A DNA stretch of 64,000 bases from an uncultured Anaerolineaceae bacterium (GCA_964435005.1 CAYSXA010000001.1:2237-66236); one strand, 5' to 3'; positions 2 through 12,665 are shown, numbered from the stretch's first letter. Made by a program: numbers and translations. Notes: a model not told the origin generated them from the letters alone.

Positions 2-622
2 GTGCGCGAGGGACTGCGTCTGTTGCTTGACCGGCAACCCGATTTCCGTGTGGTGGCCGAGGCGTCGAACGGTCGCGATGCGGTGCGCTTTGCCCTGGAA
101 GCCTGTCCCGATCTGTTGCTGATGGACATCAGTATGCCGGAAATGGACGGCATCCAGGCGTTGATCGAAATCCGCCGCTGCTTACCCGCTGTGCGCGCGC
201 TGATGCTTACCATGCACGAAGACCGCGACCTGTTCTTCCGCTCCTTGCAGGCTGGCGCAGCGGGTTACCTGCTCAAGGGGGCTTCTTCCCAGGAGCTGCT
301 GGAAGCGTTGCGCGTGGTGAAGCGCGGCGAGGTGTACCTCTCCCCACGGATGAACACCATCCTGGTGCAGCATTTCCTGTCGCACAACCAGATGCCGGCG
401 CCAGGTGAACCGGCGCCGCACGAAGTGCTCAGCCCGCGTGAGATGGAGGTGCTCCAGCGCCTGGCAGAGGGACAGACGAACGCCGAAATCGCCGAGGCGC
501 TGGTCATCAGTCCCAGTACGGTGCAAACCCATCGCACACGCATCCTGGAAAAACTGAGGCTGAAGACCCGCGCCGACCTGGTGAAATACGCTCTGCGTCA
601 TGGCCTGATTGACCTGGGTTGA
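2..622 (+). CDS. NarL/FixJ-type (LuxR HTH) response regulator, N-terminus cut by window edge
   Basis: ORF is open to the 5' edge. Receiver residues (DLLLMDISMPEMDG, LMLTMHED, AGAAGYLLKG) are followed by a LuxR HTH (LSPREMEVLQRLAEGQTNAEIAEALVISPSTVQTHRTRILEKL). Stop at 620-622. Confidence 0.9.
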   Translation: MREGLRLLLDRQPDFRVVAEASNGRDAVRFALEACPDLLLMDISMPEMDGIQALIEIRRCLPAVRALMLTMHEDRDLFFRSLQAGAAGYLLKGASSQELLEALRVVKRGEVYLSPRMNTILVQHFLSHNQMPAPGEPAPHEVLSPREMEVLQRLAEGQTNAEIAEALVISPSTVQTHRTRILEKLRLKTRADLVKYALRHGLIDLG

Positions 623-757
623 TCGGCTGTTGGGGGAAAAAGCCGTTCGTCACCCGTTGGTGTGATGATTTTCACCCTGGATGTCACGTTTTTAACGACA
701 CGTGAATCCCTATCTGCGCGATACCCGCCCACAGTCTCTCATGGTATCTTAATCTCC

Positions 758-1132
758 ATGAGGCGACTGCGCATTTTCCTGATCTGGAAGCACCCCCTGT
801 TACGTGATACCGTTCATGCCATCCTGGAGCAGGCCAACCTCTCGCTGAGCGGCGAATTCGTCGGCGGGGCCGATCTGGAGCAGTTGGAACAACTGCAGCC
901 GGATGTGTTGTTGGTGGAAGACGATGGCGACCTGGTGCAGCGATTGTTGCCTCTGCTCTCGCAGATGAGCGGCGTGCGGCTGATTCGCATCAGCCTGGAA
1001 GATAACCGCCTGCATTTGTATCACCACGTGGAGCGCACGCTGACTCATCAATCCGACCTGATCGAAGCGTTACAGAGCGTCGTTCGCCTGGAAGGCCGCG
1101 AGCGACGAAAATCCCAAAGGAAGGAGAATCGC
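758..1132 (+). CDS. Receiver-like (pseudo-receiver) domain in frame with actA and not separated from it by any stop; either a cytoplasmic N-terminal extension of ActA or untranslated
   Basis: ATG at 758. Alternating beta/alpha pattern (LRIFLIW / PLLRDTVHAILEQ / DVLLVEDDGD / VRLIRISL / LHLYHH) with genome-typical codon usage. No clear SD before 758 and no stop before 1133. Confidence 0.4.
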
Positions 1133-1675
1133 ATGGCTGGAGAGACCCCCTGGTTTCGGCAACCGAAGAAGTTGCTGCCGGTCGTGGCGGTTGTGGTTGT
1201 GCTGCTGCTGGCAGCGGGCTTTTTCGGCCTGAAGCAAACGCAGGCCGCGCCGCCGCAGCCGATTGCCTTCAACCACTCCGTGCACGTCAACCTGGGTGTG
1301 CAGTGTTTGTATTGTCACTCCGGGGCGTTGCGTGGCCAGACGGCCGGGCTGCCCACCATCAGCAAGTGCATGGGCTGTCACCAGCAGATTGACGCCGGTG
1401 ACAATCCTGGCAAGAAGGCGCTGATGGAATACGCCCAATCGGGCAAGCCGGTGGAGTGGGTGCCGGTGGCGATGCAGCCGGACTTTGTGTACTTCAGTCA
1501 CCGGCCTCACGTGAACGCTGGTCTGAACTGCGAGACCTGCCACGGGGATGTGAGCAAGATGACCGTGGCCGAGCCGCAGAAAGGCCAGAACATGGGCTGG
1601 TGTCTGTCCTGCCACAAGGGTCTGGCACCGGAGCACTTCGTGAAACTGTCCGACTGCGCCACGTGCCACAAATGA
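1133..1675 (+). CDS. actA: Alternative Complex III pentahaem cytochrome c subunit (ActA-like) with N-terminal membrane anchor
   Basis: SD AAGGAGAA (1120-1127) plus ATG 1133. TM helix LLPVVAVVVVLLLAAGFFGL. Five CXXCH motifs (CLYCH, CMGCH, CETCH, CLSCH, CATCH). First gene of an act-ordered operon. The ORF stays open upstream to 758/662. Confidence 0.85.
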   Translation: MAGETPWFRQPKKLLPVVAVVVVLLLAAGFFGLKQTQAAPPQPIAFNHSVHVNLGVQCLYCHSGALRGQTAGLPTISKCMGCHQQIDAGDNPGKKALMEYAQSGKPVEWVPVAMQPDFVYFSHRPHVNAGLNCETCHGDVSKMTVAEPQKGQNMGWCLSCHKGLAPEHFVKLSDCATCHK

Positions 1676-1687
1676 GCGGAGGCTGGA

Positions 1688-3868
1688 ATGAGTGAACAGA
1701 TCACCCGACGAGATTTTCTCAAACTAAGCGGTGCCGGTGCCGCGGCGGCAGCGGTGTTGACCGGTTGTGGCCCGGTGGCGCGCTACGTCACCCGCCGCCC
1801 GTACACCGAGATGCCGGAATACACCCTGCCTGGTCAGAGCACCTACTATGCCACCACCTGCCGCGAGTGCCCCGCCGGTTGTGGGCTGATCGTCCGCACG
1901 GTGGAAGGGCGCGCAATCAAGGTGGAGGGCAATCCCAACCATCCGGTCAGCCGTGGGCGCACCTGCTCGCGCGGCCAGGCCTCTTTGCAGGGCCTGTACA
2001 ACCCCGACCGCATCCAGGGGCCGGTGAAGCAGGCCCAGCGCGGAAGCGGCTCGTTCGAGGCGGTGGACTGGGATGCCGCCGTGCAGGTGGTGCAGGACGC
2101 GCTGGCGAACACCGCCCCGGAGGGCATCGCCTTCCTGATGGGGTTGAACCATGACCATTTGTTCGATCTGGTGCAGCAGATCACTCAGGCGCTGGGCGCA
2201 CCTGAGCCGCTGCGCTTTGGGGCGCTGGGGCTGCTGGAGGGCCGCGCCACGCTGATTGCTGCCGCCAGTAAGGTGCTGGGCAAGGCGGCGTTGCCGCACT
2301 TTGACCTGCATCACGCTGAGATGGCCTTCTCCTTTGGCGCAAACTTCCTGGAGACCTGGCTTTCGCCGGTGGCCTATGGCAACGATTACGGCGCGATGCG
2401 GCGCGGGGAGATTGGTCAGCGCGGATATCTGGTGCACTTTGAACCGCGCATGTCGCTGACCGCGGCCAACGCCGACGAGTGGTTCCCGATTACGCCGGGT
2501 ACGGAAGGACTGGTGGCCCAGGCGTTGGGCAAACTGGTCGCCGAAGCGCTGGGTGCTCCCGCGCCGAAGATTTTCGCCGATGTAGATGTGGCGGCTGTCG
2601 CGAAGCAGGCTGGCGTTAAGGAAGAAGACCTGCATCGTCTGGCGACGATGTTCGCCCGCGCCAGCCGCAAGGTTGCTATCCCCGGCGGCGCGGCGCTGGG
2701 ACACACCAACGGCTTCCAGGCCGCGCAGGCCATCCTGGCGCTCAACGCGCTGGTGGATAACCTGGGTAAACCCGGTGGCGTGTTCTTCGCCCCCGATCTG
2801 CCGGTGAACGCCGATCTGGCACACCGACCGGCCACCCTGGCGCAGATCACCCGGCTGGTCAAGCAGATGAATGAGGGCAAGATTCAGGTGCTGTTCGTGC
2901 ACGGCGTGAATCCGGCCTACGAACTGCCGGCGGCGCTGGGCTTCGCTGAAGCGTTGAACAACGTGCCGCTGGTGATTTCCTTTGCGTCCTTCCCCGATGA
3001 GACTGCTCAGATGGCGGATTATGTGTTCCCCGACCACACGCCGCTGGAGGGTTGGGGATATCAGAAGGTGGCCGTGGGCGCCGATCGTGCGGTGATCTCC
3101 GGCGCGCAGCCGGTGGTTGTGCCGCTGTATGACACGCGCGCCACTGCCGACGTGCTGCTGGCTGCCGTCCAGGGCATCGGCGGCAACCTGGCCGATCAGG
3201 TGCCTTACAAGGACGAAGTGGACTTCATCCAGCAGTCGGTGACCGCCTTGTTGCGCGAGCAGGGCTTTTACGCGGCTCCGGAGATCAAGACCTTCTTCGC
3301 CCGCTTCCAGCAGTTTGGCGGCTGGTGGTCGGCTTCTCCCAATCTGGAAGCGCCCACCTCTGGCGCGGCGCTCGGCCATTCGCTGGAGATGCCGGTAGCC
3401 GAGTTTGATGGCGAGGGCGAGTTCACGCTCTATGTGTACCCTTCGCCTACTCTGGGCGACGGTAGTGGCGCCAACCGCCCCTGGTTGCAGGAAACCCCCG
3501 ATCCCATGACCACGGTGATGTGGAACTCGTGGGTGGAGATCAACCCGGAGACGGCGCGCGAACTCGGTTTGCGCGACGATGACGTGGTGCGCATCACCTC
3601 GCCCTATGGCTCGGTGGAGGCAGTGGTGTATTTGTACCCGGCCATCCGTCCGGATACCATTGCCATCCCGCTGGGACAAGGGCACACCGCGCTGGGACGC
3701 TATGCCGAAGGACGCGGTGTCAACCCTCTGACCCTGCTCGGCGCGAAGGTGAACGCGGCCGGCGATCTGGCCTTTGTCGCCACCCGTGTGAAGATTGAGA
3801 AGACCGGGCGCCGCCGCCAACTGGCGCGCTATGAAAACCGCGTGGGCGTGTACGGCGACGGCGCGTGA
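1688..3868 (+). CDS. actB: Alternative Complex III molybdopterin-oxidoreductase-like subunit (ActB1 portion), Tat-exported
   Basis: Twin-arginine signal TRRDFLKLSGAGAAAAAVLTGCG. N-terminal Cys motif CRECPAGCG..C. 726 aa with MopB-family architecture. Sits between the pentahaem and FeS subunits. Confidence 0.85.
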   Translation: MSEQITRRDFLKLSGAGAAAAAVLTGCGPVARYVTRRPYTEMPEYTLPGQSTYYATTCRECPAGCGLIVRTVEGRAIKVEGNPNHPVSRGRTCSRGQASLQGLYNPDRIQGPVKQAQRGSGSFEAVDWDAAVQVVQDALANTAPEGIAFLMGLNHDHLFDLVQQITQALGAPEPLRFGALGLLEGRATLIAAASKVLGKAALPHFDLHHAEMAFSFGANFLETWLSPVAYGNDYGAMRRGEIGQRGYLVHFEPRMSLTAANADEWFPITPGTEGLVAQALGKLVAEALGAPAPKIFADVDVAAVAKQAGVKEEDLHRLATMFARASRKVAIPGGAALGHTNGFQAAQAILALNALVDNLGKPGGVFFAPDLPVNADLAHRPATLAQITRLVKQMNEGKIQVLFVHGVNPAYELPAALGFAEALNNVPLVISFASFPDETAQMADYVFPDHTPLEGWGYQKVAVGADRAVISGAQPVVVPLYDTRATADVLLAAVQGIGGNLADQVPYKDEVDFIQQSVTALLREQGFYAAPEIKTFFARFQQFGGWWSASPNLEAPTSGAALGHSLEMPVAEFDGEGEFTLYVYPSPTLGDGSGANRPWLQETPDPMTTVMWNSWVEINPETARELGLRDDDVVRITSPYGSVEAVVYLYPAIRPDTIAIPLGQGHTALGRYAEGRGVNPLTLLGAKVNAAGDLAFVATRVKIEKTGRRRQLARYENRVGVYGDGA

Positions 3869-3890
3869 GCCGGATGGAGGAGCATCTGCC

Positions 3891-4598
3891 ATGAGTGAAA
3901 ACGTGGAACAAGCCAAATGGGCCATGGTCATCGACCTGGATCGATGCAACGGCTGCCAGGCGTGCGTGACGGCCTGTTCGCTGGAGAACAACGTGCCCAC
4001 CGTGGGCGAAGAACAGGCGGCCTACGGGCGCGGCATGCACTGGATTCGTGTGGTACGCTACTGGGAGGGCGAATTCCCCAACGTGCGGGCGCGCTTCATG
4101 CCTGTGATGTGCCAGCAGTGCGGCAACGCGCCCTGCGAACCGGTCTGCCCGGTGTTCGCTACCTATCACAGCGAGGCTGAGCAGATCAATGTGCAGGTGT
4201 ATAACCGCTGCATCGGCACCCGCTACTGCGCCAACAACTGCCCTTACATCGCTCGTACCTTTAACTGGTTTGATTGGGAGCGTCCGGAACCGCTTACTTA
4301 CCAGTTGAACCCGGATGTCACCGTGCGACGGCGCGGCATCATGGAAAAATGCACCTTCTGCGTGCAGCGCATCCGCAAGGCAGAAGAAGACGCCAAGGCC
4401 GAAGGCCGCCCGGTGGCTGACGGTGAGGTGCAGCCCGCCTGCGCGCAGGCCTGCCCGGCGGACGCCATCGTGTTCGGCGACCTGAGCGATCCGGAGAGCC
4501 GCGTGAGCCAGCTGGCCCGCAGCGGGCGCGCCATGCGCCTGGAAGAGGGTCTCGGCACGGAACCCAAAGTGATCTACCTCAAGGGAGGGCAACCGTGA
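3891..4598 (+). CDS. actB: Alternative Complex III iron-sulfur subunit (ActB2 portion), multi-[4Fe-4S] ferredoxin-like
   Basis: SD GGAGGAG plus ATG 3891. Cys clusters CNGCQACVTAC, CQQCGNAPCEPVCP, CIGTRYCANNCP, CTFC, CAQACP. The ORF-track start at 3795 overlaps actB1 and is unlikely. Confidence 0.85.
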   Translation: MSENVEQAKWAMVIDLDRCNGCQACVTACSLENNVPTVGEEQAAYGRGMHWIRVVRYWEGEFPNVRARFMPVMCQQCGNAPCEPVCPVFATYHSEAEQINVQVYNRCIGTRYCANNCPYIARTFNWFDWERPEPLTYQLNPDVTVRRRGIMEKCTFCVQRIRKAEEDAKAEGRPVADGEVQPACAQACPADAIVFGDLSDPESRVSQLARSGRAMRLEEGLGTEPKVIYLKGGQP

Positions 4599-6031
4599 GC
4601 GCACAAACGGAAATTTTGCACCTCGGACAAGTGGGTGAGGAGCAGGAACTGCGCGAAGAGCACCTGTTGCTCGACCCGCGCCCGCGTGAAGAGATGAACC
4701 GCATGGTCATGGAGGCCATGACCAGCACCACGCCGGGCTTCTGGGCTGCGGTCGCCATCCTGGGCGGGCTGGTGACGTTCGCCCTGTTCGGCGCCTGGGG
4801 CTACATGATCACCAAAGGCATGGGCGTGGCCGGCATCCGCCGCCCGATCTTCTGGGGCGTGTTCATCGTGAACTTCGTGTTCTGGATCGGCATCAGCCAC
4901 GCCGGGACGTTCGTCTCCGCCATCCTTCGCGTATTCAAGGCGGAGTTCCGCCGCCCCTTCACCCGTGCGGCGGAACTGATGACCACCTTCGGCCTGGCGG
5001 CGGCGGGTATGTATCCTCTGATCCACCTGGGACGCACCTGGCGCTTCTACTGGATGGTGCCTTACCCCAACCAGCGCTGGCTGTGGCCAAACTTCCACTC
5101 CCCGCTGGTGTGGGACATGCTGGCGATTACCACCTACCTGCTGGGGAGCACGATGTACCTCTTCCTGCCGCTCATCCCTGACCTGGCGATGGCGCGTGAC
5201 CGCTCGAAAGGCTGGCGCTATCACCTGTACCGCATCCTGGCGCTGGGCTGGCGCGGTACGGAGGCCGAATGGAAGCATCTGCACACCGCGATTAACATCT
5301 TCGCCTTCGCCATCATCCCGGTGATGTTCTCGGTGCACACCATCGTGGCCTGGGACTTCGCGGTCTCGATGAAGATCGGCTGGCACTCCACCATCTTCGG
5401 CCCGTACTTTGTGGTTGGCGCGATCCTCTCCGGCGTCTCGGCGGTGGTGATGGTGCTGGTGACCATCCGCGCCACGATGAAGCACATGACCTACTTCATC
5501 CGTCCGGAGCACATCGACGCGCTGGGGAAACTGGTGCTGATCTTCTCCATGTCCTGGGCGTACTTCTTCTTCAACGATTACGTCCTGGAGTGGTACGGCG
5601 GTGAGGAGGTCGGCAAGCAACTGCTCACCTTCCAGGCGCACGGGCCAGTGGCCTGGGTGTGGTACACCATGTTGATTTGCAACGTGCTTATCCCCTGGCT
5701 CACGCTGTGGAATCGCAAGGTGCGCCGTAACCCGACGCTGATGTTCATCATCACCGCCCTGGTGAACGTGGGAATGTACGCCGAGCGCTATGTGATTGTG
5801 ACTGGCGTGCTCAGCCGCAACCGCTTCCCCTTTGATTGGGGCTGGTACAACCCCACCTGGGTGGAGATTTCCATCAGCATCGGTTCGCTCGCACTGTTCC
5901 TCTTCCTGTACGTGGTGATGTCTCGCCTGATCCCGCTCATCCCGGTCTGGGAGGTGCAGGAAGGGCAACTGGCGCACACGCTGCGCCGCATCGGGAAGAC
6001 GGTGGTGCCTTCGGTGAGCGAGCTGGAGTAG
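4595..6031 (+). CDS. actC: Alternative Complex III NrfD/PsrC-like integral membrane quinol-interacting subunit (ActC-like)
   Basis: GTGA overlap with actB2. 478 aa polytopic membrane protein with many hydrophobic helices and a W/F-rich composition. Position in operon. Confidence 0.85.
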   Translation: MSAQTEILHLGQVGEEQELREEHLLLDPRPREEMNRMVMEAMTSTTPGFWAAVAILGGLVTFALFGAWGYMITKGMGVAGIRRPIFWGVFIVNFVFWIGISHAGTFVSAILRVFKAEFRRPFTRAAELMTTFGLAAAGMYPLIHLGRTWRFYWMVPYPNQRWLWPNFHSPLVWDMLAITTYLLGSTMYLFLPLIPDLAMARDRSKGWRYHLYRILALGWRGTEAEWKHLHTAINIFAFAIIPVMFSVHTIVAWDFAVSMKIGWHSTIFGPYFVVGAILSGVSAVVMVLVTIRATMKHMTYFIRPEHIDALGKLVLIFSMSWAYFFFNDYVLEWYGGEEVGKQLLTFQAHGPVAWVWYTMLICNVLIPWLTLWNRKVRRNPTLMFIITALVNVGMYAERYVIVTGVLSRNRFPFDWGWYNPTWVEISISIGSLALFLFLYVVMSRLIPLIPVWEVQEGQLAHTLRRIGKTVVPSVSELE

Positions 6032-6051
6032 CGGTATAAGGAGCGGATGAG

Positions 6052-6576
6052 ATGAGCGAAGGAACAACTCACCTGGCGTTGTTTGATGACATTGAAAAGG
6101 TCACCCACGCGCTGGATCGCCTGCGTGAATTGGGGCTGGACGAACACGACATCAGCGTGGTATCAGGTGTGCCGTATTCCGAGCACATCCTGGGGCGCCC
6201 GATGCGCTGGAGCAACGTGGGGAAGATCGGCATGGGCGGCTTTCTGGTCGGCTTCGCCGCCAGCATTGCGCTGAACTGGGGCACGCCGTTGCTCTACCCG
6301 GTGCACGTCGGTGGACAGGCGCTTTTGCCCATCCCGCCGACGATCATCCTCACGTTTGAGCTGAGCATGTTGGGGCTGCTGATCAGCACCTTCCTCGGTG
6401 TGTTGTGGGAGAGTGTCTTCCCCTCTTATGGGCCGAAGGTGTATCACCCCGGTATCTCCGATGGCAAGATCGCGCTGGTGTTCAATTGCCCGCCGGAGAT
6501 TCATGAGAAAATGCACGCCGTGATGGCTGACCTGGGTGCGGAATGGGTGCATCGAACGGAGGCGCAGAAACTATGA
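6052..6576 (+). CDS. actD: Alternative Complex III ActD-like subunit (DUF3341-type), C-terminal TM helices
   Basis: N-terminus THLALFDDIEKVTHALDRLRELG is typical of ActD/DUF3341. Two TM helices. Operon position. Confidence 0.75.
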   Translation: MSEGTTHLALFDDIEKVTHALDRLRELGLDEHDISVVSGVPYSEHILGRPMRWSNVGKIGMGGFLVGFAASIALNWGTPLLYPVHVGGQALLPIPPTIILTFELSMLGLLISTFLGVLWESVFPSYGPKVYHPGISDGKIALVFNCPPEIHEKMHAVMADLGAEWVHRTEAQKL

Positions 6577-7085
6577 ACGGTTTGGGAAAACGCATCGCGA
6601 TCACTCTGGCGATTATCACCGTGCCGCTGGTCGTGGGGTTGCTGTTTACCTATGAGAAGGTGAAGGTGGACTGGATCAGTTTCATGGAGATTCAGCCTTC
6701 CTATCGCCCGATGGAAGACCCGTTGCCCGTGCCGGCGGACTCCGTGCCGATTGACGGCCCGGCCTATGTGAAGGGCGTGGGCTCGCCGGTGAACCCGGTC
6801 GAGGCGGATGAGGTCTCGCTGGAGCGCGGCAAGATCCTGTACGATATCAACTGCGCGCTGTGTCACGGCTATGACGGCAAAGGGAACGGGCCAATCGCGC
6901 CCTTCCTGCGGAAGGAGCCGCCTGCTGACCTGACCAGTGGTGTGGTGAAGGAAGACAGCGACGGCGCGATCTTTCTGGTGATCACGAACGGCGTGCCGGG
7001 TGCCATGCCTGCGCTGCGCGAGAACCTGACCGTGCGCGAGCGCTGGGACGTGGTCAACTACCTGCGCACCTTGCAGACGCCGTAA
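6573..7085 (+). CDS. actE: Alternative Complex III monohaem cytochrome c subunit (ActE-like), membrane anchored
   Basis: ATGA overlap with actD. TM anchor IAITLAIITVPLVVGLLF. Single CALCHG with a distal ..GAMPAL.. Met region. Confidence 0.8.
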   Translation: MNGLGKRIAITLAIITVPLVVGLLFTYEKVKVDWISFMEIQPSYRPMEDPLPVPADSVPIDGPAYVKGVGSPVNPVEADEVSLERGKILYDINCALCHGYDGKGNGPIAPFLRKEPPADLTSGVVKEDSDGAIFLVITNGVPGAMPALRENLTVRERWDVVNYLRTLQTP

Positions 7086-7099
7086 CGGGAGTGGTTGCG

Positions 7100-7693
7100 A
7101 TGAAGAACACGAAACTCTGGATGATTCTGGTCGGGCTGATGCTCGTGGTGAGCGCCTGTGCCCGCGTGCCCGATACCCCCGGTGAGCGCACCCCCATTCC
7201 GCCCCTGCCGCCGGCCACGTTGCCGGCGCCTGACCTGGGCGTGAGCGAGGGTGGTGAAGCCGCCGCGCTGCCGTGCAACATCGCTGCTGTTGACCTGATT
7301 GGCGCCTGGGTGCAGGCCGGCACGCCGGAAACCGAGCCGTTTGACTTCACCGATGCGTTCGGCACGGCCTGTGAGGGCACGTTCGAGGCGGATGTACTGC
7401 CGCTGTTTACTCAGGCTAACCTGTGGTTCGATGGCGCGCTGGCGTGCAGCTCCTGCCATGGGTCCGATCTGAAGGCCGCTGCTGCGCAACTGGACTTGAC
7501 CTCGTATGCCGGAATCCTGGCTGGGGCGCGTCGCACCTCGGCGGATGCGCCGGGCGAGGACATCCTCGGCGGCGGGAACTGGGAAGGAGCCAAGCTGTAC
7601 CAGATGTTGGTCAGCCGGGCAATGCCTATCGGACGCCCACCGGATTCACCGGAAAAAGGCCCGGTAATTCCCGCTGGTACGCCCAAAAAGTAG
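7100..7693 (+). CDS. Lipoprotein monohaem cytochrome c (PSCyt1 / planctomycete-type cytochrome c domain-like)
   Basis: Signal plus lipobox LMLVVSAC. Single CSSCHG followed by LDLTSYAGILAG...MPIGRP, which resembles the PSCyt1 pattern. Alternative GTG start at 7091. Last gene before the terminator. Confidence 0.7.
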   Translation: MKNTKLWMILVGLMLVVSACARVPDTPGERTPIPPLPPATLPAPDLGVSEGGEAAALPCNIAAVDLIGAWVQAGTPETEPFDFTDAFGTACEGTFEADVLPLFTQANLWFDGALACSSCHGSDLKAAAAQLDLTSYAGILAGARRTSADAPGEDILGGGNWEGAKLYQMLVSRAMPIGRPPDSPEKGPVIPAGTPKK

Positions 7694-7760: not shown

Positions 7761-9227
7761 TCCACTCATGATATACTCACGTTACTCCCCGGCTGGAGGT
7801 GACCATGCGGTCGGTCTTGCAGGCGCGCTTGCACGAAGTGGTCTCCGGTGCGGATACGCAACGAGCGTTGCGCTACGCACAGGTGTTTTTGCCGCTCATC
7901 CTGTTTTTTGTGGCTGCCGGCTTCGAAGTGGTAGAGCACCATGTCTGGTCACCTGAACTGCGGCGTCCTGGCTGGAGTCAGGAGATCTTTCTTTTCGGCG
8001 TAGTGGGGCCATTGGCCGTCTCCCTGGTGATCGGCTACATTCGCTATGTGACGCGCTACACTCTGACCATGGAGCGTCACCTGGCGGCCATCACCCAGCA
8101 CTCGCCAGATGCCATCCTGAGCCTGACGCCTCAAGGCGAAGTGCTCTCCTGGAACCGGGGTGCGGAGCGGTTGTTCGGCTATAGTACAACTCAAGCGCTA
8201 AGGCAGTCCATCGAGCATCTGCTACAGGCTGAAGCAGATGCGCTACAACGGTTGCTACAGCAGACTGTGCAGCAGGGCGAGGTGCATGGGCAGGTGCTCA
8301 CCTTCCACGATGCGATGGGGGATGAGCGCCTAGCCGAAGTTTCTCTCACGCTGCTTCCGGCGGTGGAGGGTGAAGCGCTGGCAGTGGCTGCGATCTTCCA
8401 CGATGTGACCGAGCGGGTACAGCATCAACGGGCCATCGAACGCCTGAACGCCGATCTGGCGCGGCAGGTGGAAGAGCGCACCCGCGATCTGGCGCAACGC
8501 AATCGCCAGTTAGAGGCCGCCAACCGCCGCTTGCAGGAACTCGACCGGTTGAAGAGCGAGTTTGTCTCGCTGGTCAACCATCAATTGCGTGGCCCGCTGA
8601 CCAATCTCCGCGGCGCGGTAGAGTTGATGCAGAGCCGTTGCACTCAACCCAACGCCACCTGCGCTCGCATGCAACCCATCGTGCTCGACGAGATCGACCG
8701 TCTGGCGTTTATGGTGCGTCGCATTCTGGATGTTTCGCGCATTGAAGCCGGAGCGATGGCGCTTTCCCTGGAGCCGGTGTTTTTGCAGGAAGTGCTCCAG
8801 TCGCTTGCGGCGGAGTTTGTCGCTGATGCTGGGCGCCTGCGGTGGCCAAAAGACGCCGGGGTCTGGGTGCAGGCGGATGTTCACCATCTGCACGATGTGA
8901 TCTTCAACCTGGTGGACAATGCATTGCGCTATTCTCCCGAAGAGACGCCGGTGGAGATCGACTGCCGTCGTGATGACGGCTGGGTGACGCTTACCGTCAC
9001 GGATCACGGGCCGGGCATTCCGCCGGAAGAGCAGGTGCGCATCTTTGATAAGTTCCACCGCCTGGACGGTGGCGATGCGCAGCGGGTGTATGGCTACGGC
9101 CTGGGATTGTTCATTTGCAAGCGGCTCACCGAAGCCATGGGTGGTGAGATTCACCTGGAGAGCGGGGTCGGGCAAGGGAGTCGCTTCACCGTGCGGCTGC
9201 CGCTGGCGTCTGTGAAGGAGGAGAAGG

Positions 9228-10175: not shown

Positions 10176-10337
10176 GTGGGTAACTGGATTGCAACGCCCC
10201 ATAGACCAGATTTAGACCTCTTTTCGGTATGGTTAAGGTGTGATTCATCTGCGTTTAATCTGCAGGAGGTGAACCGATCGATACCGTACAGGTTTGATGT
10301 CCCGTACCCCAAGATCTGATTGAGGAGGAAGTGTGAG

Positions 10338-12665
10338 ATGAAAGCGCATAAAACCTGGTTCTGGACGGCTGTGATCCTCGTAGCACTGGTCGCCGGGCTG
10401 GTGGGTACCGCCCTGGCGCATGGCGAGGTTCCTGGCATCGTCCGTGGTGCCCAGATGTACGATAACTGGTGGAAGACGTTGGGCGTGGAAGCGCCCACCG
10501 GCAATCACCCGTTGTATCCTGCCGAGGGCAAGAAGAGCGGTGCAGAGACCTGGCGCTGCAAAGAGTGCCACGGTTGGGATTACATGGGCAAAGACGGTGC
10601 GTATAGTGAAGGCTCCAGCCATTACACCGGCATCAAGGGCGTGATGGACGTGGCTGGTCAACCGGTGGAAGAGATTGTGAAGTGGCTGGACGGCACGAAT
10701 AACCCGGATCACAACTTTGCCCAGTTCTTCAACGATGAGCAGGCGGTGATCGACCTGGCGACTTTCCTGAGCGAAGGTCTGTTCGATGCCAGCCAGATCA
10801 TCGACTATGCCACCAAGGCCGCGATCAGCGGCAACGCCGAACACGGCAAGGAGTTGTTTGAGACCTGCGCGGCCTGCCACGGCGTGACGGGTCAACAGCT
10901 CAATTTTGGCTCTGACGAAGATCCCGAGTTCGTTGGAACTGTGGCGTCAGGCAATCCGTGGGAGTTCCTGCACAAGGTGCGCGCCGGCCAGCCGGCTACT
11001 GAGATGCCGGCGGCGCTGGCTCCCAACTCGCCCACCGGCACCTGGACGGCGCAGGACTTCGCCGACCTGATCGCTTACGCCAGCACGCTACCCACGGAAC
11101 CGATCAAAGGGAACGTGCCGCGCGGCGGTCTGCTGTATGACAAGTGGTGGAAGGTGATTGGCGCGGATGCCCCGACCGAGACCCACCCGCTGTATCCTGC
11201 CGAGGGCAAGAAGAGCGGCGCGGACACCTGGCGCTGCAAGGAGTGCCACGGCTGGGACTACAAGGGCAAGGACGGCGCCTACGGCGAAGGCTCCAGCCAC
11301 TACACCGGCATCAAGGGTGTAATAGGCGTGGCTGGTCAACCGGTGGAAGAGATCGTCAAATGGCTGGACGGCACGAACAACGCCGACCACGACTTCTCGA
11401 CGGTGATGAGCGCCACTGACCTGGAAGACCTGGCGGCCTTCCTGAGCGCCGGCCTGGCGGACGACGCCCTCGTGATTGACTACGCCTCCAAGGCCTTCGT
11501 CGGCGATGAAGAAGAGGCCATGGAAGAGGGCGAAGAGCTCTTCGAGGCGGTTTGTGCTGCCTGCCACGGCATGGACGGCACGGCGATCGTCTTTGGCGAC
11601 GAAGAAGAGCCGGAGTTCATCGGTACAATTGCCAACGACAATCCGTGGGAGTTCATCCATAAAGTGCGCTTCGGTCAGCCCGGCACGGAAATGCCTTCGG
11701 GTTACGCCGCTGGCTGGGGGCTGGACGAGGCTGCTGATGTCTGGGTGTACGCCACGACGCTGCCCACGGAGAAGGTCGAGGTGGCCGGTGACGTGGTACG
11801 CGGCGGTGCGATGTATGACAAGTGGTGGAAGGTGCTCGGCATCGACCCGCCGGAAGGCGATATGCCGCTTTGGGCTACGCAGACCACGAACACCCGCTCC
11901 GGTGCGGACACCTGGCGCTGCAAGGAGTGCCACGGCTGGGACTACAAGGGCAAGGACGGCGCTTACGGTGAAGGCTCCTCTCACTACACTGGCTTCCCCG
12001 GCGTGCTGGGTGTATCCGGTCAGCCGGTAGAGGAAATCGTTAAATGGCTGGACGGCACGAACAACGCCGACCACGACTTCTCGGCCTGGATGAGCGAGAC
12101 CGATATGGCCGATATGGCTGCCTTCCTGAGCAGCGCACTGATCGACACCAACGCGGTTATCGACCCGGAGACCAAGGCGATCAAAGGCGACGTTGATGAG
12201 GGCAAGGAGTTGTTCGAGGCGGTCTGCGCTGCCTGCCATGGCCCGGATGGCACGGCGATTAACTTCGCAGCGCCCGATGAGGAGGAGTTCATCGGCACGA
12301 TTGCCAACGACAATCCGTGGGAGCTCCTGCACAAGGTGCGCTTCGGCCAACCAGGCGAGGAGATGCCCGCTGTGCTCGACCCGAACTCCGCGACCGGCGC
12401 CTGGTCGTTGGAGGAGATCGCGGAGGTGATGGCCTACGCGCAGACGCTGCCTGCCGGTGCAGGTGGCGAGGAGAAAGAGGCCACGGTAGAAGCGCCCACA
12501 CAGGCGCCTGAACCCACCAAAGCCCCTGCTCCGACCCAGGCACCTGTGCCTACGGAAGTGCCCGCACCAGCACCCTCAGGCGGCAACACGGGCCTGATCG
12601 TCGGCGCGATCATCCTGGTGGTGATCATCGTCGGCGGCGCAGTGTGGTACTCGCGCAAGAAGTAG
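10338..12665 (+). CDS. Hexahaem c-type cytochrome made of three tandem dihaem modules, with secretion signal, Pro/Thr-rich linker and C-terminal TM anchor
   Basis: SD GAGGAGGAAG plus ATG 10338. Signal WFWTAVILVALVAGLVGTALAHG. Three WRCKECHGWDY motifs and three CAACHG motifs. Linker APTQAPEPTKAPAPTQAPVPTEVPAPAP. C-terminal helix LIVGAIILVVIIVGGAVWY-SRKK. Confidence 0.85.
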   Translation: MKAHKTWFWTAVILVALVAGLVGTALAHGEVPGIVRGAQMYDNWWKTLGVEAPTGNHPLYPAEGKKSGAETWRCKECHGWDYMGKDGAYSEGSSHYTGIKGVMDVAGQPVEEIVKWLDGTNNPDHNFAQFFNDEQAVIDLATFLSEGLFDASQIIDYATKAAISGNAEHGKELFETCAACHGVTGQQLNFGSDEDPEFVGTVASGNPWEFLHKVRAGQPATEMPAALAPNSPTGTWTAQDFADLIAYASTLPTEPIKGNVPRGGLLYDKWWKVIGADAPTETHPLYPAEGKKSGADTWRCKECHGWDYKGKDGAYGEGSSHYTGIKGVIGVAGQPVEEIVKWLDGTNNADHDFSTVMSATDLEDLAAFLSAGLADDALVIDYASKAFVGDEEEAMEEGEELFEAVCAACHGMDGTAIVFGDEEEPEFIGTIANDNPWEFIHKVRFGQPGTEMPSGYAAGWGLDEAADVWVYATTLPTEKVEVAGDVVRGGAMYDKWWKVLGIDPPEGDMPLWATQTTNTRSGADTWRCKECHGWDYKGKDGAYGEGSSHYTGFPGVLGVSGQPVEEIVKWLDGTNNADHDFSAWMSETDMADMAAFLSSALIDTNAVIDPETKAIKGDVDEGKELFEAVCAACHGPDGTAINFAAPDEEEFIGTIANDNPWELLHKVRFGQPGEEMPAVLDPNSATGAWSLEEIAEVMAYAQTLPAGAGGEEKEATVEAPTQAPEPTKAPAPTQAPVPTEVPAPAPSGGNTGLIVGAIILVVIIVGGAVWYSRKK
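10428..12455 (+). repeat. Intragenic triplication (about 680 nt per unit): R1 10428-11108, R2 11109-11786, R3 11787-12455
   Basis: Protein-level repeat (RGxxMYDxWWKxLG...WRCKECHGWDYxGKDGAY.EGSSHYTG...VEEIVKWLDGTNN.DH.F...CAACHG...NPWE..HKVR.GQP..EMP). R2 and R3 share perfectly identical DNA runs at 11223-11278 = 11907-11962 and 11358-11399 = 12042-12083, both at an offset of 684 nt. Confidence 0.9.

Follow-up and report, generated by a model that had tools for sequence, protein, structure and literature searches.

How cells monitor their electron-transport complexes is poorly understood. In the described cases, cbb3 oxidase signals to PrrBA/RegBA, and sensor-less intramembrane histidine kinases rely on an accessory membrane complex, as in BceS-BceAB and LiaFSR; to our knowledge, no pseudo-receiver is joined to a complex subunit in any of these systems. 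In the cryo-electron microscopy (cryo-EM) structures of alternative complex III (ACIII) from R. castenholzii and R. marinus, ActA is anchored by an N-terminal transmembrane (TM) helix that is present in the mature complex, and ActD forms a small cytoplasmic domain together with the termini of ActC/F (PMC7439408, PMC5928083). Pseudo-receivers, which include the aspartate-less receiver (ALR) domains (reviewed in PMC12632262 and PMC4395418), are common, and the working of the bacterial ones is largely obscure (PMC12632262). Here, we describe a locus in which the two meet: a 64,000-nucleotide stretch of DNA from an uncultured Anaerolineaceae bacterium (GCA_964435005.1 CAYSXA010000001.1:2237-66236), the whole of which we call the window, contains an ACIII operon whose first gene encodes a pseudo-receiver domain in frame with ActA. 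The fusion is real and maintained. We favor, with roughly even confidence and with its structural claims included, a reading in which the pseudo-receiver is a tethered third component of the adjacent two-component system and links ACIII to it.

The protein resembles the ActA of R. castenholzii and R. marinus in having an N-terminal TM anchor and a pentahaem periplasmic domain; the solved ActA proteins start a few residues before the TM helix, whereas here 125 extra cytoplasmic residues precede it. The elements concerned are as follows, with dN/dS denoting the ratio of non-synonymous to synonymous substitution rates:

2..622, plus strand: LuxR/NarL-type response regulator gene, truncated at its 5' end by the window edge (Pfam Response_reg, 1.7e-22; GerE, 3e-21)
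758..1081, plus strand: pseudo-receiver (aspartate-less receiver-like) domain, residues 1-108 (homology, fold model, dN/dS 0.115)
1082..1132, plus strand: linker, residues 109-125, basic, fast-evolving and without a stop (dN/dS 0.485)
1133..1675, plus strand: ActA proper from an internal ATG, with a TM anchor at 1172-1231, five CXXCH motifs and a stop at 1673-1675 (Pfam Cytochrome_C7, Cytochrom_CIII, Cytochrom_c3_2)

The plus-strand frame of actA has no stop between 662 and the one at 1673-1675. From ATG 758 it runs for 305 codons (305 residues), the first 125 of which lie before the ActA methionine at 1133, and because the homologues begin at ATG 758, where their N-termini align, the GTG at 662 is not the start. 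No Shine-Dalgarno (SD) sequence precedes ATG 758. A preliminary description of this DNA had reported an open stretch of about 125 codons with normal codon usage ahead of an actA with a strong SD and ATG 1133, and a LuxR-type regulator directly upstream (2-622). All of this is borne out: the frame is open from ATG 758, the SD is AAGGAG at 1121-1126 with a 6-nt spacer, the regulator is recognized by Pfam and ends at 622, and the in-frame GC content at third codon positions (GC3) is 0.76 over 758-1081, as in the regulator gene (0.76), next to 0.81 in actA, 0.79 in actB1 and ~0.5 in the 623-757 spacer. An open frame of 125 codons arises at the same composition with a chance of ~1% (150/20,000 shuffles), and the other two frames across 758-1132 contain 7 and 2 stops, the last ones at 1059 and 1003.

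Selection on the segment was assessed by comparing the window with locus L089, which encodes the fusion protein P0265 (88% identical):

Pseudo-receiver, codons 1-108: substitutions by codon position 16/6/32; 31 synonymous and 12 non-synonymous codon changes; dN/dS 0.115 (dS 0.68)
Linker, codons 109-125: substitutions by codon position 3/6/8; 3 synonymous and 8 non-synonymous codon changes; dN/dS 0.485
ActA: substitutions by codon position 14/6/46; 41 synonymous and 15 non-synonymous codon changes; dN/dS 0.086

The third-position-biased substitutions, the low dN/dS and the in-frame GC3 thus identify the upstream segment as coding and constrained: residues 1-108 are conserved coding sequence under purifying selection, neither a leader nor a pseudogene, which also answers, for these residues, whether 758-1132 is conserved at the protein level, a check proposed in the preliminary description. 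The same 305-residue product is encoded in three independent assemblies (two JGI metagenomes and one Logan assembly), which share 4,675 bases of DNA with at most 1 nt of difference; because the three agree, the missing stop is not a sequencing error.

The architecture is not confined to the window. A search with a profile of two full-length fusions places P0265 (304 residues) and P0267 (93% identical, cut by the contig end) in the clade of the window, both open like it, and defines a second clade of three proteins (P0006, P0266 and P0268; 309-310 residues) that are 38-40% identical to the window protein. P0265, P0266 and P0268 each head an ACIII operon, and in L088 and L091-93 the fusion is directly preceded by genes for a short HisKA_3 kinase and a LuxR regulator; the contigs of L089 and L090 start ~130 nt before the fusion gene, leaving the kinase/regulator region outside them. 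In a neighbor-joining tree of the pseudo-receiver domain, each fusion clade is supported (194/200 and 199/200 replicates), all five fusions form one clade in only 1/200 bootstrap replicates, and the nearest relatives of the window clade are stand-alone proteins, including that of L006, in which one substitution in the stop codon would recreate the window architecture. Because the fusion clades do not group together, it appears that the fusion either arose twice or that fusion and fission alternated. The receiver-like domain read in frame with the pentahaem subunit in the preliminary description is therefore a recurrent arrangement, found in two clades and, for the window, in three assemblies. 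In L091, ActB1 is present as two open reading frames (ORFs; 4574-6798), whereas in L092 (4451-6673) and in another assembly of the same fusion it is a single 740-residue gene, and the split is probably an assembly frameshift error.

The ActA portion is of the ordinary kind, with an N-terminal TM anchor followed by five haem c sites, the CXXCH motifs beginning at residues 183, 204, 258, 282 and 300. The TM segment, LLPVVAVVVVLLLAAGFFGL, spans residues 139-158 of the long product, with a net charge of +7 in the 25 residues before it and +1 in the 15 after it. Because this helix is retained in mature ACIII and the charges follow the positive-inside pattern, the N-terminal extension is expected to be cytoplasmic, and, by analogy with the solved complexes, the fused pseudo-receiver would sit at the cytoplasmic face of ACIII on a flexible tether. 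The topology sketched in the preliminary description (cytoplasmic receiver-like domain, TM helix, periplasmic pentahaem domain) is coherent on the same grounds. A cleavable signal peptide in the hydrophobic segment (conserved AQAAP), whose removal would part the pseudo-receiver from the pentahaem domain, was considered and set aside, as the helix is found in the mature R. castenholzii and R. marinus complexes. In P0006, residues ~283-290 read FFLDCH at one of the five haem motifs, where P0266 and P0268 have FCLDCH; the difference reflects either an error in the sequence or a haem site with a single Cys.

The internal methionine aligns with the start of ordinary ActA proteins. An 11-nt SD block, AAGGAAGGAGA, precedes the internal ATG and is identical in the window and L089, the rest of the linker having diverged; the internal start is CAGGAGGAAAGT-ATG in L088 and GAGGGGGAAGC-TTG in L091-93, and an SD with ATG or TTG is kept in all four fusion loci with DNA (window, L089, L088 and L091). 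This conservation suggests that ActA still initiates on its own; free ActA is then probably made as well, giving a long and a short form. Nested in-frame products of internal initiation are familiar from CheA (long and short) and IF2 (alpha and beta), and like these the fusion is one ORF with a conserved internal SD and start that could give two forms; unlike them, the arrangement here arose by fusing two adjacent genes, and its two products are putative. Across the six fusion sequences, the linker is poorly conserved, contains Gly/Pro in the relatives, and never has a stop or frameshift.

The pseudo-receiver belongs to a family that current libraries do not model. A Pfam scan of the window copy gave no match at E <= 1, PF00072 Response_reg included; 20 of 60 family members match PF00072 weakly (best 9.9e-5), below the gathering threshold, and in NCBIfam the first 50 residues of NarL are matched weakly (E 4.8e-4). 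A word-indexed protein search with the 125-residue segment alone returned no match, and scans of metagenome contigs, made from a 7-sequence alignment and from the single protein, yielded patterns, none of which led to a confirmed relative. With phmmer, run exhaustively against 1.84 billion representatives, we recovered 169 proteins at E <= 1e-3, mostly stand-alone and of ~110 residues, and a profile search of a 5.8-billion-sequence set recovered ~75 clusters without a Pfam domain, separated by a clear score gap from genuine LuxR-type regulators. Against the PDB, the family profile matches the receiver domains of CheY, EvgA and NarL at E 1e-7 to 3e-7, over profile positions 4-86 only.

We modeled the fold with AlphaFold2 from a 64-sequence alignment (mean pLDDT 85.9). 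The predicted elements are β1 (5-10), α1 (13-25), β2 (29-35), α2 (40-46), β3 (50-54), α3 (58-69), β4 (74-79), a β strand (84-89) that belongs to a β-hairpin in the model, and after it a C-terminal helix (98-124); the canonical (βα)5 fold is not formed in this model. The best Foldseek matches in the PDB are the receivers of EvgA, NarL, RcsB, VraR and DosR (~80 residues, root-mean-square deviation 2.2 Å, template-modeling score ~0.53), with the CikA pseudo-receiver (5jyu) at rank 16. The CheY-like pattern noticed in the preliminary description is thus upheld by sequence profile, by superposition on receivers and by the structure prediction that it had suggested, as is its remark that an acidic pocket was not obvious. 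In an alignment with the neighboring regulators and E. coli NarL, the DD-H-P motif has become W-K-H-P, the acidic pair being replaced by W10-K11; the phospho-Asp of P-D-x-x-x-x-D is a Glu (E54); S79 occupies the T position; the β3-α3 loop is 2-3 residues shorter than in NarL-type receivers; and the G-x-x-G-Y-x-x-K β5 segment is deleted along with its Lys, which leaves the canonical set of five residues (DD, D, T/S, K) incomplete. Glu stands at the D position in at least 90% of family members, in which DD and K are also absent; W10, P13, P48-D49, E54, N83 and D100-L101 are near-invariant.

Compared with the NarL/FixJ receivers (EvgA 3f6c/5f64, NarL 1a04/1rnl and RcsB), which are its best profile and structural matches and of which a family member is encoded directly upstream, the pseudo-receiver shares the β1-α1-β2-α2-β3-α3-β4 order, H-P after β1, P-D before β3 and a D-L-L helix; it differs from them in having no DD, phospho-Asp or GxxGYxxK β5 segment, a β-hairpin in place of α4-β5, no DNA-binding domain, and scores under the PF00072 threshold. 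Like the ALR domains (plant pseudo-response regulators with Glu at D, and CikA), it is a receiver homolog without catalytic residues, and Glu is the commonest substitution at the D position in ALR domains (PMC12632262); unlike the known ones, it forms a distinct, shortened family without a Pfam model, whose members either stand alone or are joined to a TorD-like chaperone or a membrane cytochrome. By the definitions of PMC12632262, the domain is a pseudo-receiver of the aspartate-less type with a shortened fold. Descent from a NarL/FixJ-type receiver, with loss of the capacity to be phosphorylated, is the best explanation of its sequence. A recent duplication of the receiver of the neighboring regulator is not supported, identity being 21% to that regulator and 23% to E. 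coli NarL. The most conserved elements of the family are β1, the β1-α1 loop, α1, the DN turn and the start of the C-terminal helix. In receivers, α1 is also a main kinase-docking element. NarL/FixJ regulators dimerize through their α1-α5 face (PMC12632262).

The common state of the pseudo-receiver in relatives is a separate gene of ~110 codons with its own stop. A survey of actA confirmed 140 relatives in Anaerolineales genomes, of which the best 80 loci were analyzed; only two (L006 and L071) contain a homolog of the pseudo-receiver, as a separate gene in both, and the rest of the 80-locus set has no coding-looking in-frame extension of ActA. The L006 pseudo-receiver gene, of 111 codons, ends in its own stop 54 nt before an actA that shares its frame; that of L071, of 120 codons, lies in a different frame from actA and overlaps its start. 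Two checks proposed at the outset were therefore answered in part: the survey of ActA N-termini found no fusion among these 80 loci, the fusions coming from the full-length profile, and a stop is present in the separate-gene relatives and absent from the six fusion sequences. A LuxR regulator lies directly upstream of actA in 2/2 loci with a pseudo-receiver vs 0/78 of the others, and because only these same two loci have it, the pseudo-receiver travels with the two-component system and not with ACIII in general.

The gene usually has a HisKA_3 kinase/LuxR regulator pair on one side and, on the other, a multihaem cytochrome gene that heads an ACIII-like operon, and it stands directly upstream of actA or a larger multihaem cytochrome gene in L006, L071, L085, L086/87, L096 and L097. 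Beyond L006 and L071, the gene orders are:

L085: kinase, regulator, pseudo-receiver, ActA-like cytochrome, ActB
L096: regulator, pseudo-receiver, ActA-like cytochrome, ActB1, ActB2, ActC
L086/87: kinase, regulator, pseudo-receiver, 713-residue multihaem cytochrome, cytochrome c, molybdopterin, FeS, NrfD
L097: pseudo-receiver, 700-residue multihaem cytochrome, cytochrome c, molybdopterin subunit (the contig begins just upstream, with the kinase/regulator region outside it)
L084: pseudo-receiver, small ORF, 336-residue multihaem cytochrome (kinase/regulator pair just downstream)
L094: pseudo-receiver, 169-residue ORF, 348-residue multihaem cytochrome (no kinase or regulator on the contig)
L095, a marginal member: next gene not a cytochrome

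Two distant members are fused to other domains. P0149 (L098 6001-6876) is fused to a NarJ/TorD-type chaperone (PF02613, E 3e-12), and its gene closes an operon of GAF-HisKA_3 kinase, LuxR regulator, Tat-molybdopterin, FeS and NrfD genes; a second TorD-like gene and a MobA/MobB-like gene follow it in L098. P0142 (366 residues) is fused to a DUF166 domain (PF02593, E 2e-39).

The architecture of the kinase changes to match the fusion state. Kinases beside separate pseudo-receiver genes (5/5; 478-524 residues) have two CXXCH motifs in a ~150-residue loop between TM1 and TM2, which would form a dihaem c periplasmic sensor domain, and all four separate-locus kinases with Pfam data (L084, L085a/b and L086) have HAMP. 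Kinases in fusion loci (3/3; 317-330 residues) have two TM helices with a ~15-residue join, no CXXCH and no HAMP; the full regulator (221 residues) and HisKA_3 kinase (317 residues, two TM helices, no periplasmic domain) that correspond to the cut edge of the window are visible in L081. We take this pattern, which comes from a small sample, as a lead and not as proof. The dihaem HisKA_3 kinases are:

L071: 336-1880
L084: 8059-9591
L085: 1265-2788 and 3646-5082
L086: 3465-5039

One of the dihaem kinases has a weak Pfam match to Mcp40H-20_sensor. As in BceS-BceAB and LiaFSR, the fusion-locus kinase has two TM helices, no sensor domain and, beside it, a membrane complex that could signal; unlike these systems and cbb3-PrrBA/RegBA, the kinase-complex interaction here is putative. 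As a separate observation, a PAS-HisKA kinase just downstream of the ACIII operon has a two-TM N-terminal module (window 7799-8080) homologous to that of the short HisKA_3 kinases (L081 1254-1520, L088 5193-5460, L092 1724-1990; 26-31% identity; pattern LPL..L...E.H ... FFG(V/I)VGP..V), and one kinase with this membrane module lies on each side of the ACIII operon.

Receiver ancestry, the exclusive co-occurrence with a LuxR regulator, the conserved surface of α1 and the last helix, and the kinase pattern together point to a signaling link, and we propose the following model. Loss of a stop codon, here and in the second clade, would have joined the pseudo-receiver gene to actA, giving a long product composed of the pseudo-receiver, a flexible basic linker, the ActA TM helix and the periplasmic pentahaem domain. 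The pseudo-receiver would thereby be placed on the cytoplasmic face of ACIII, while the internal SD and start would still give free ActA, the long form possibly being sub-stoichiometric. The pseudo-receiver may then dock to the kinase or the regulator through its conserved face of α1 and the C-terminal helix, coupling the presence or state of the respiratory complex to the expression of its own operon. Four parts of this model are putative: that the long form is translated, that two products result, which partner is bound and which way the regulation runs. A more specific proposal, which we consider unlikely at present, is that in the fusion lineages ACIII is the sensory input of the neighboring two-component system, the kinase, having lost its dihaem domain, reading the state or abundance of the complex via the tethered pseudo-receiver; if true, the fusion would be a hard-wired "respiratory complex as co-sensor" module, and the free pseudo-receiver of other lineages its diffusible precursor.

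Several observations weigh against the pseudo-receiver as a tethered third component. The α4-β5 region, a contact surface of many receivers, is missing; in the near relative L006, whose pseudo-receiver gene is separate, no kinase adjoins the regulator; the kinase correlation compares two fused clades with four separate-gene loci (five kinases), which are perhaps non-independent, and the short kinases of both fused clades are homologs of one another; free ActA may go into most of the ACIII that is built, leaving the long form minor; and the chaperone fusion of P0149 suits a role in assembly at least as well as one in signaling. This reading nevertheless ranks first, followed by a neutral loss of the stop and then by an assembly factor. 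If the stop loss were merely tolerated, the fusion would be a neutral tether, with ActA made from its own SD and ATG and the pseudo-receiver acting as in its relatives. The L006 genes, which lie in one frame, apart by one stop codon and 54 nt, and which a single substitution would fuse, agree with this, as do the conserved internal SD and start and the relaxed linker (dN/dS 0.485); however, the frame has stayed open in the window clade at dS ~0.7 and in the second clade at saturated dS, no stop or frameshift has appeared despite heavy turnover of the linker (8 of its 17 codons non-synonymously changed vs L089), the fusion is found in two clades that do not group together, and it coincides with loss of the kinase sensor domain, all of which makes a neutral tether rather improbable.

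The assembly alternative, which comes next and which we also doubt, holds that the pseudo-receiver is not a signaling component but an assembly or maturation accessory of multihaem/NrfD-type complexes that holds or guides the cytoplasmic N-terminus of the cytochrome or cooperates with Tat chaperones, fusion to ActA making the contact permanent. It draws on the position of the gene upstream of a multihaem cytochrome gene in 8 separate-gene contexts (directly, or with one small ORF between in L084 and L094), on the ActA fusion in two clades, and on P0149, joined to a NarJ/TorD-family chaperone at the end of a molybdopterin/FeS/NrfD operon. Yet the gene is missing from 78/80 Anaerolineales actA loci, so its presence is not needed for ACIII to assemble; among the 80, it occurs only where a LuxR regulator is adjacent; the chaperone-fusion operon of L098 also follows a HisKA_3 kinase and a LuxR regulator; and the ancestry of the domain is that of a signaling domain. 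Far less probable than either is that 758-1132 is an untranslated leader or the decayed remnant of a regulator gene, open by chance in GC-rich DNA: the ATG without an SD, the blank Pfam result and the frequency of long chance ORFs in the window would fit, but the third-position bias at dN/dS 0.115, the in-frame GC3 of 0.76, the 169 relatives, the confidently predicted fold and the ~1% chance of such a frame already contradict it. A stop lost or a frame shifted by sequencing or assembly error has nothing in its favor beyond the rarity of the architecture and is of negligible probability, given the agreement of three independent assemblies (identical or 1 nt apart over 4,675 bases) and the same open frame in relatives at 88% and 93% identity; moreover, the linker is stop-free in the other two frames, so a one-base shift within it could not yield a terminated protein of ~110 residues.

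Pseudo-receivers are a known type of domain. In the literature searched, we found no description of this family, of its constant linkage to multihaem/NrfD-type operons or of its fusion to a subunit of a respiratory complex. No paper there joins a pseudo-receiver with ACIII, searches on ACIII with two-component terms in Anaerolineae returned nothing relevant, and neither that literature nor the two ACIII structure papers (PMC7439408, PMC5928083) reports a cytoplasmic regulatory appendage on ACIII, in keeping with the remark in the preliminary description that receiver attachment was not known for this complex. Public annotation names the fusion "cytochrome c3 family protein" only, missing the extra domain in these cytochrome proteins, and JGI names some stand-alone members "NarL/FixJ family response regulator". 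The family offers a tractable case, with a fixed partner set (HisKA_3 kinase, LuxR regulator and multihaem/NrfD-type complex), natural fusions that point to the cytoplasmic face of ACIII at the ActA anchor as the site of action, a kinase architecture that changes in parallel, and predictions open to test: ActA in two size classes and a pseudo-receiver that binds the kinase or regulator.

Upstream of the fusion gene lies a further candidate element:

684..750, plus strand: promoter-like operon region, with motifs common to L089, L088, L006 and partly L091 (function inferred)

It contains an inverted repeat, TCACGT (684-689)/ACGTGA (700-705), 10 nt apart, around GTTTTTAACGAC (688-699), then CGATAC at 719-724 and an extended -10-like box, TGGTATCTT (742-750), which is conserved with L089 and ends 7 nt before ATG 758. 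L006 has GGGTATTCT 7 nt before its GTG, and in L088 and L091, TGTGGTATGAT and TGTGGTATCAT stand ahead of a 23-27-nt leader that contains GGAGG. The window, L089, L088, L006 and L091 share the order GTTTT(T)AACGAC, CGATA(C/G), ~20 nt, TGGTAT(C/G)(T/A)T, the first motif lying inside the inverted repeat of the window. The conserved architecture of 684-750 is possibly a regulator-binding site and the promoter of the operon, and it is a reasonable inference that the long form is leaderless in the window clade; both the -10-like box and the leaderless start come from the comparison with L089, L088, L091 and L006. A consensus promoter/terminator scan of 560-1200 found nothing, and an Rfam scan of 560-1250 gave no family, only a chance miRNA match.

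Downstream, ActA is encoded together with ActB (molybdopterin-like and FeS parts), ActC (NrfD-like), ActD and ActE:

1688-3868, plus strand: ActB1, Tat signal, molybdopterin-like (Pfam scan)
3891-4598, plus strand: ActB2, FeS (Pfam scan)
4595-6031, plus strand: ActC, NrfD (Pfam scan)
6052-6576, plus strand: ActD (Pfam PF11821)
6543-7085, plus strand: ActE, monohaem c (Pfam scan)

The operon thus resembles those of R. castenholzii and R. marinus in encoding ActB, ActC, ActD and ActE, and differs from the solved complexes in that ActB is split into two genes and ActF is absent, the Pfam scan having detected no actF in the operon (1688..7085). A 200-residue ORF after actE (7091-7693) has one CSSCH motif and no Pfam match. 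Further along, 10320-12665 encodes a 781-residue protein that opens with a signal-like segment; each of its three long repeats contains a CKECHGWDY motif as well as class I cytochrome c domains, and a Pro/Ala/Thr-rich linker leads to a C-terminal TM anchor.

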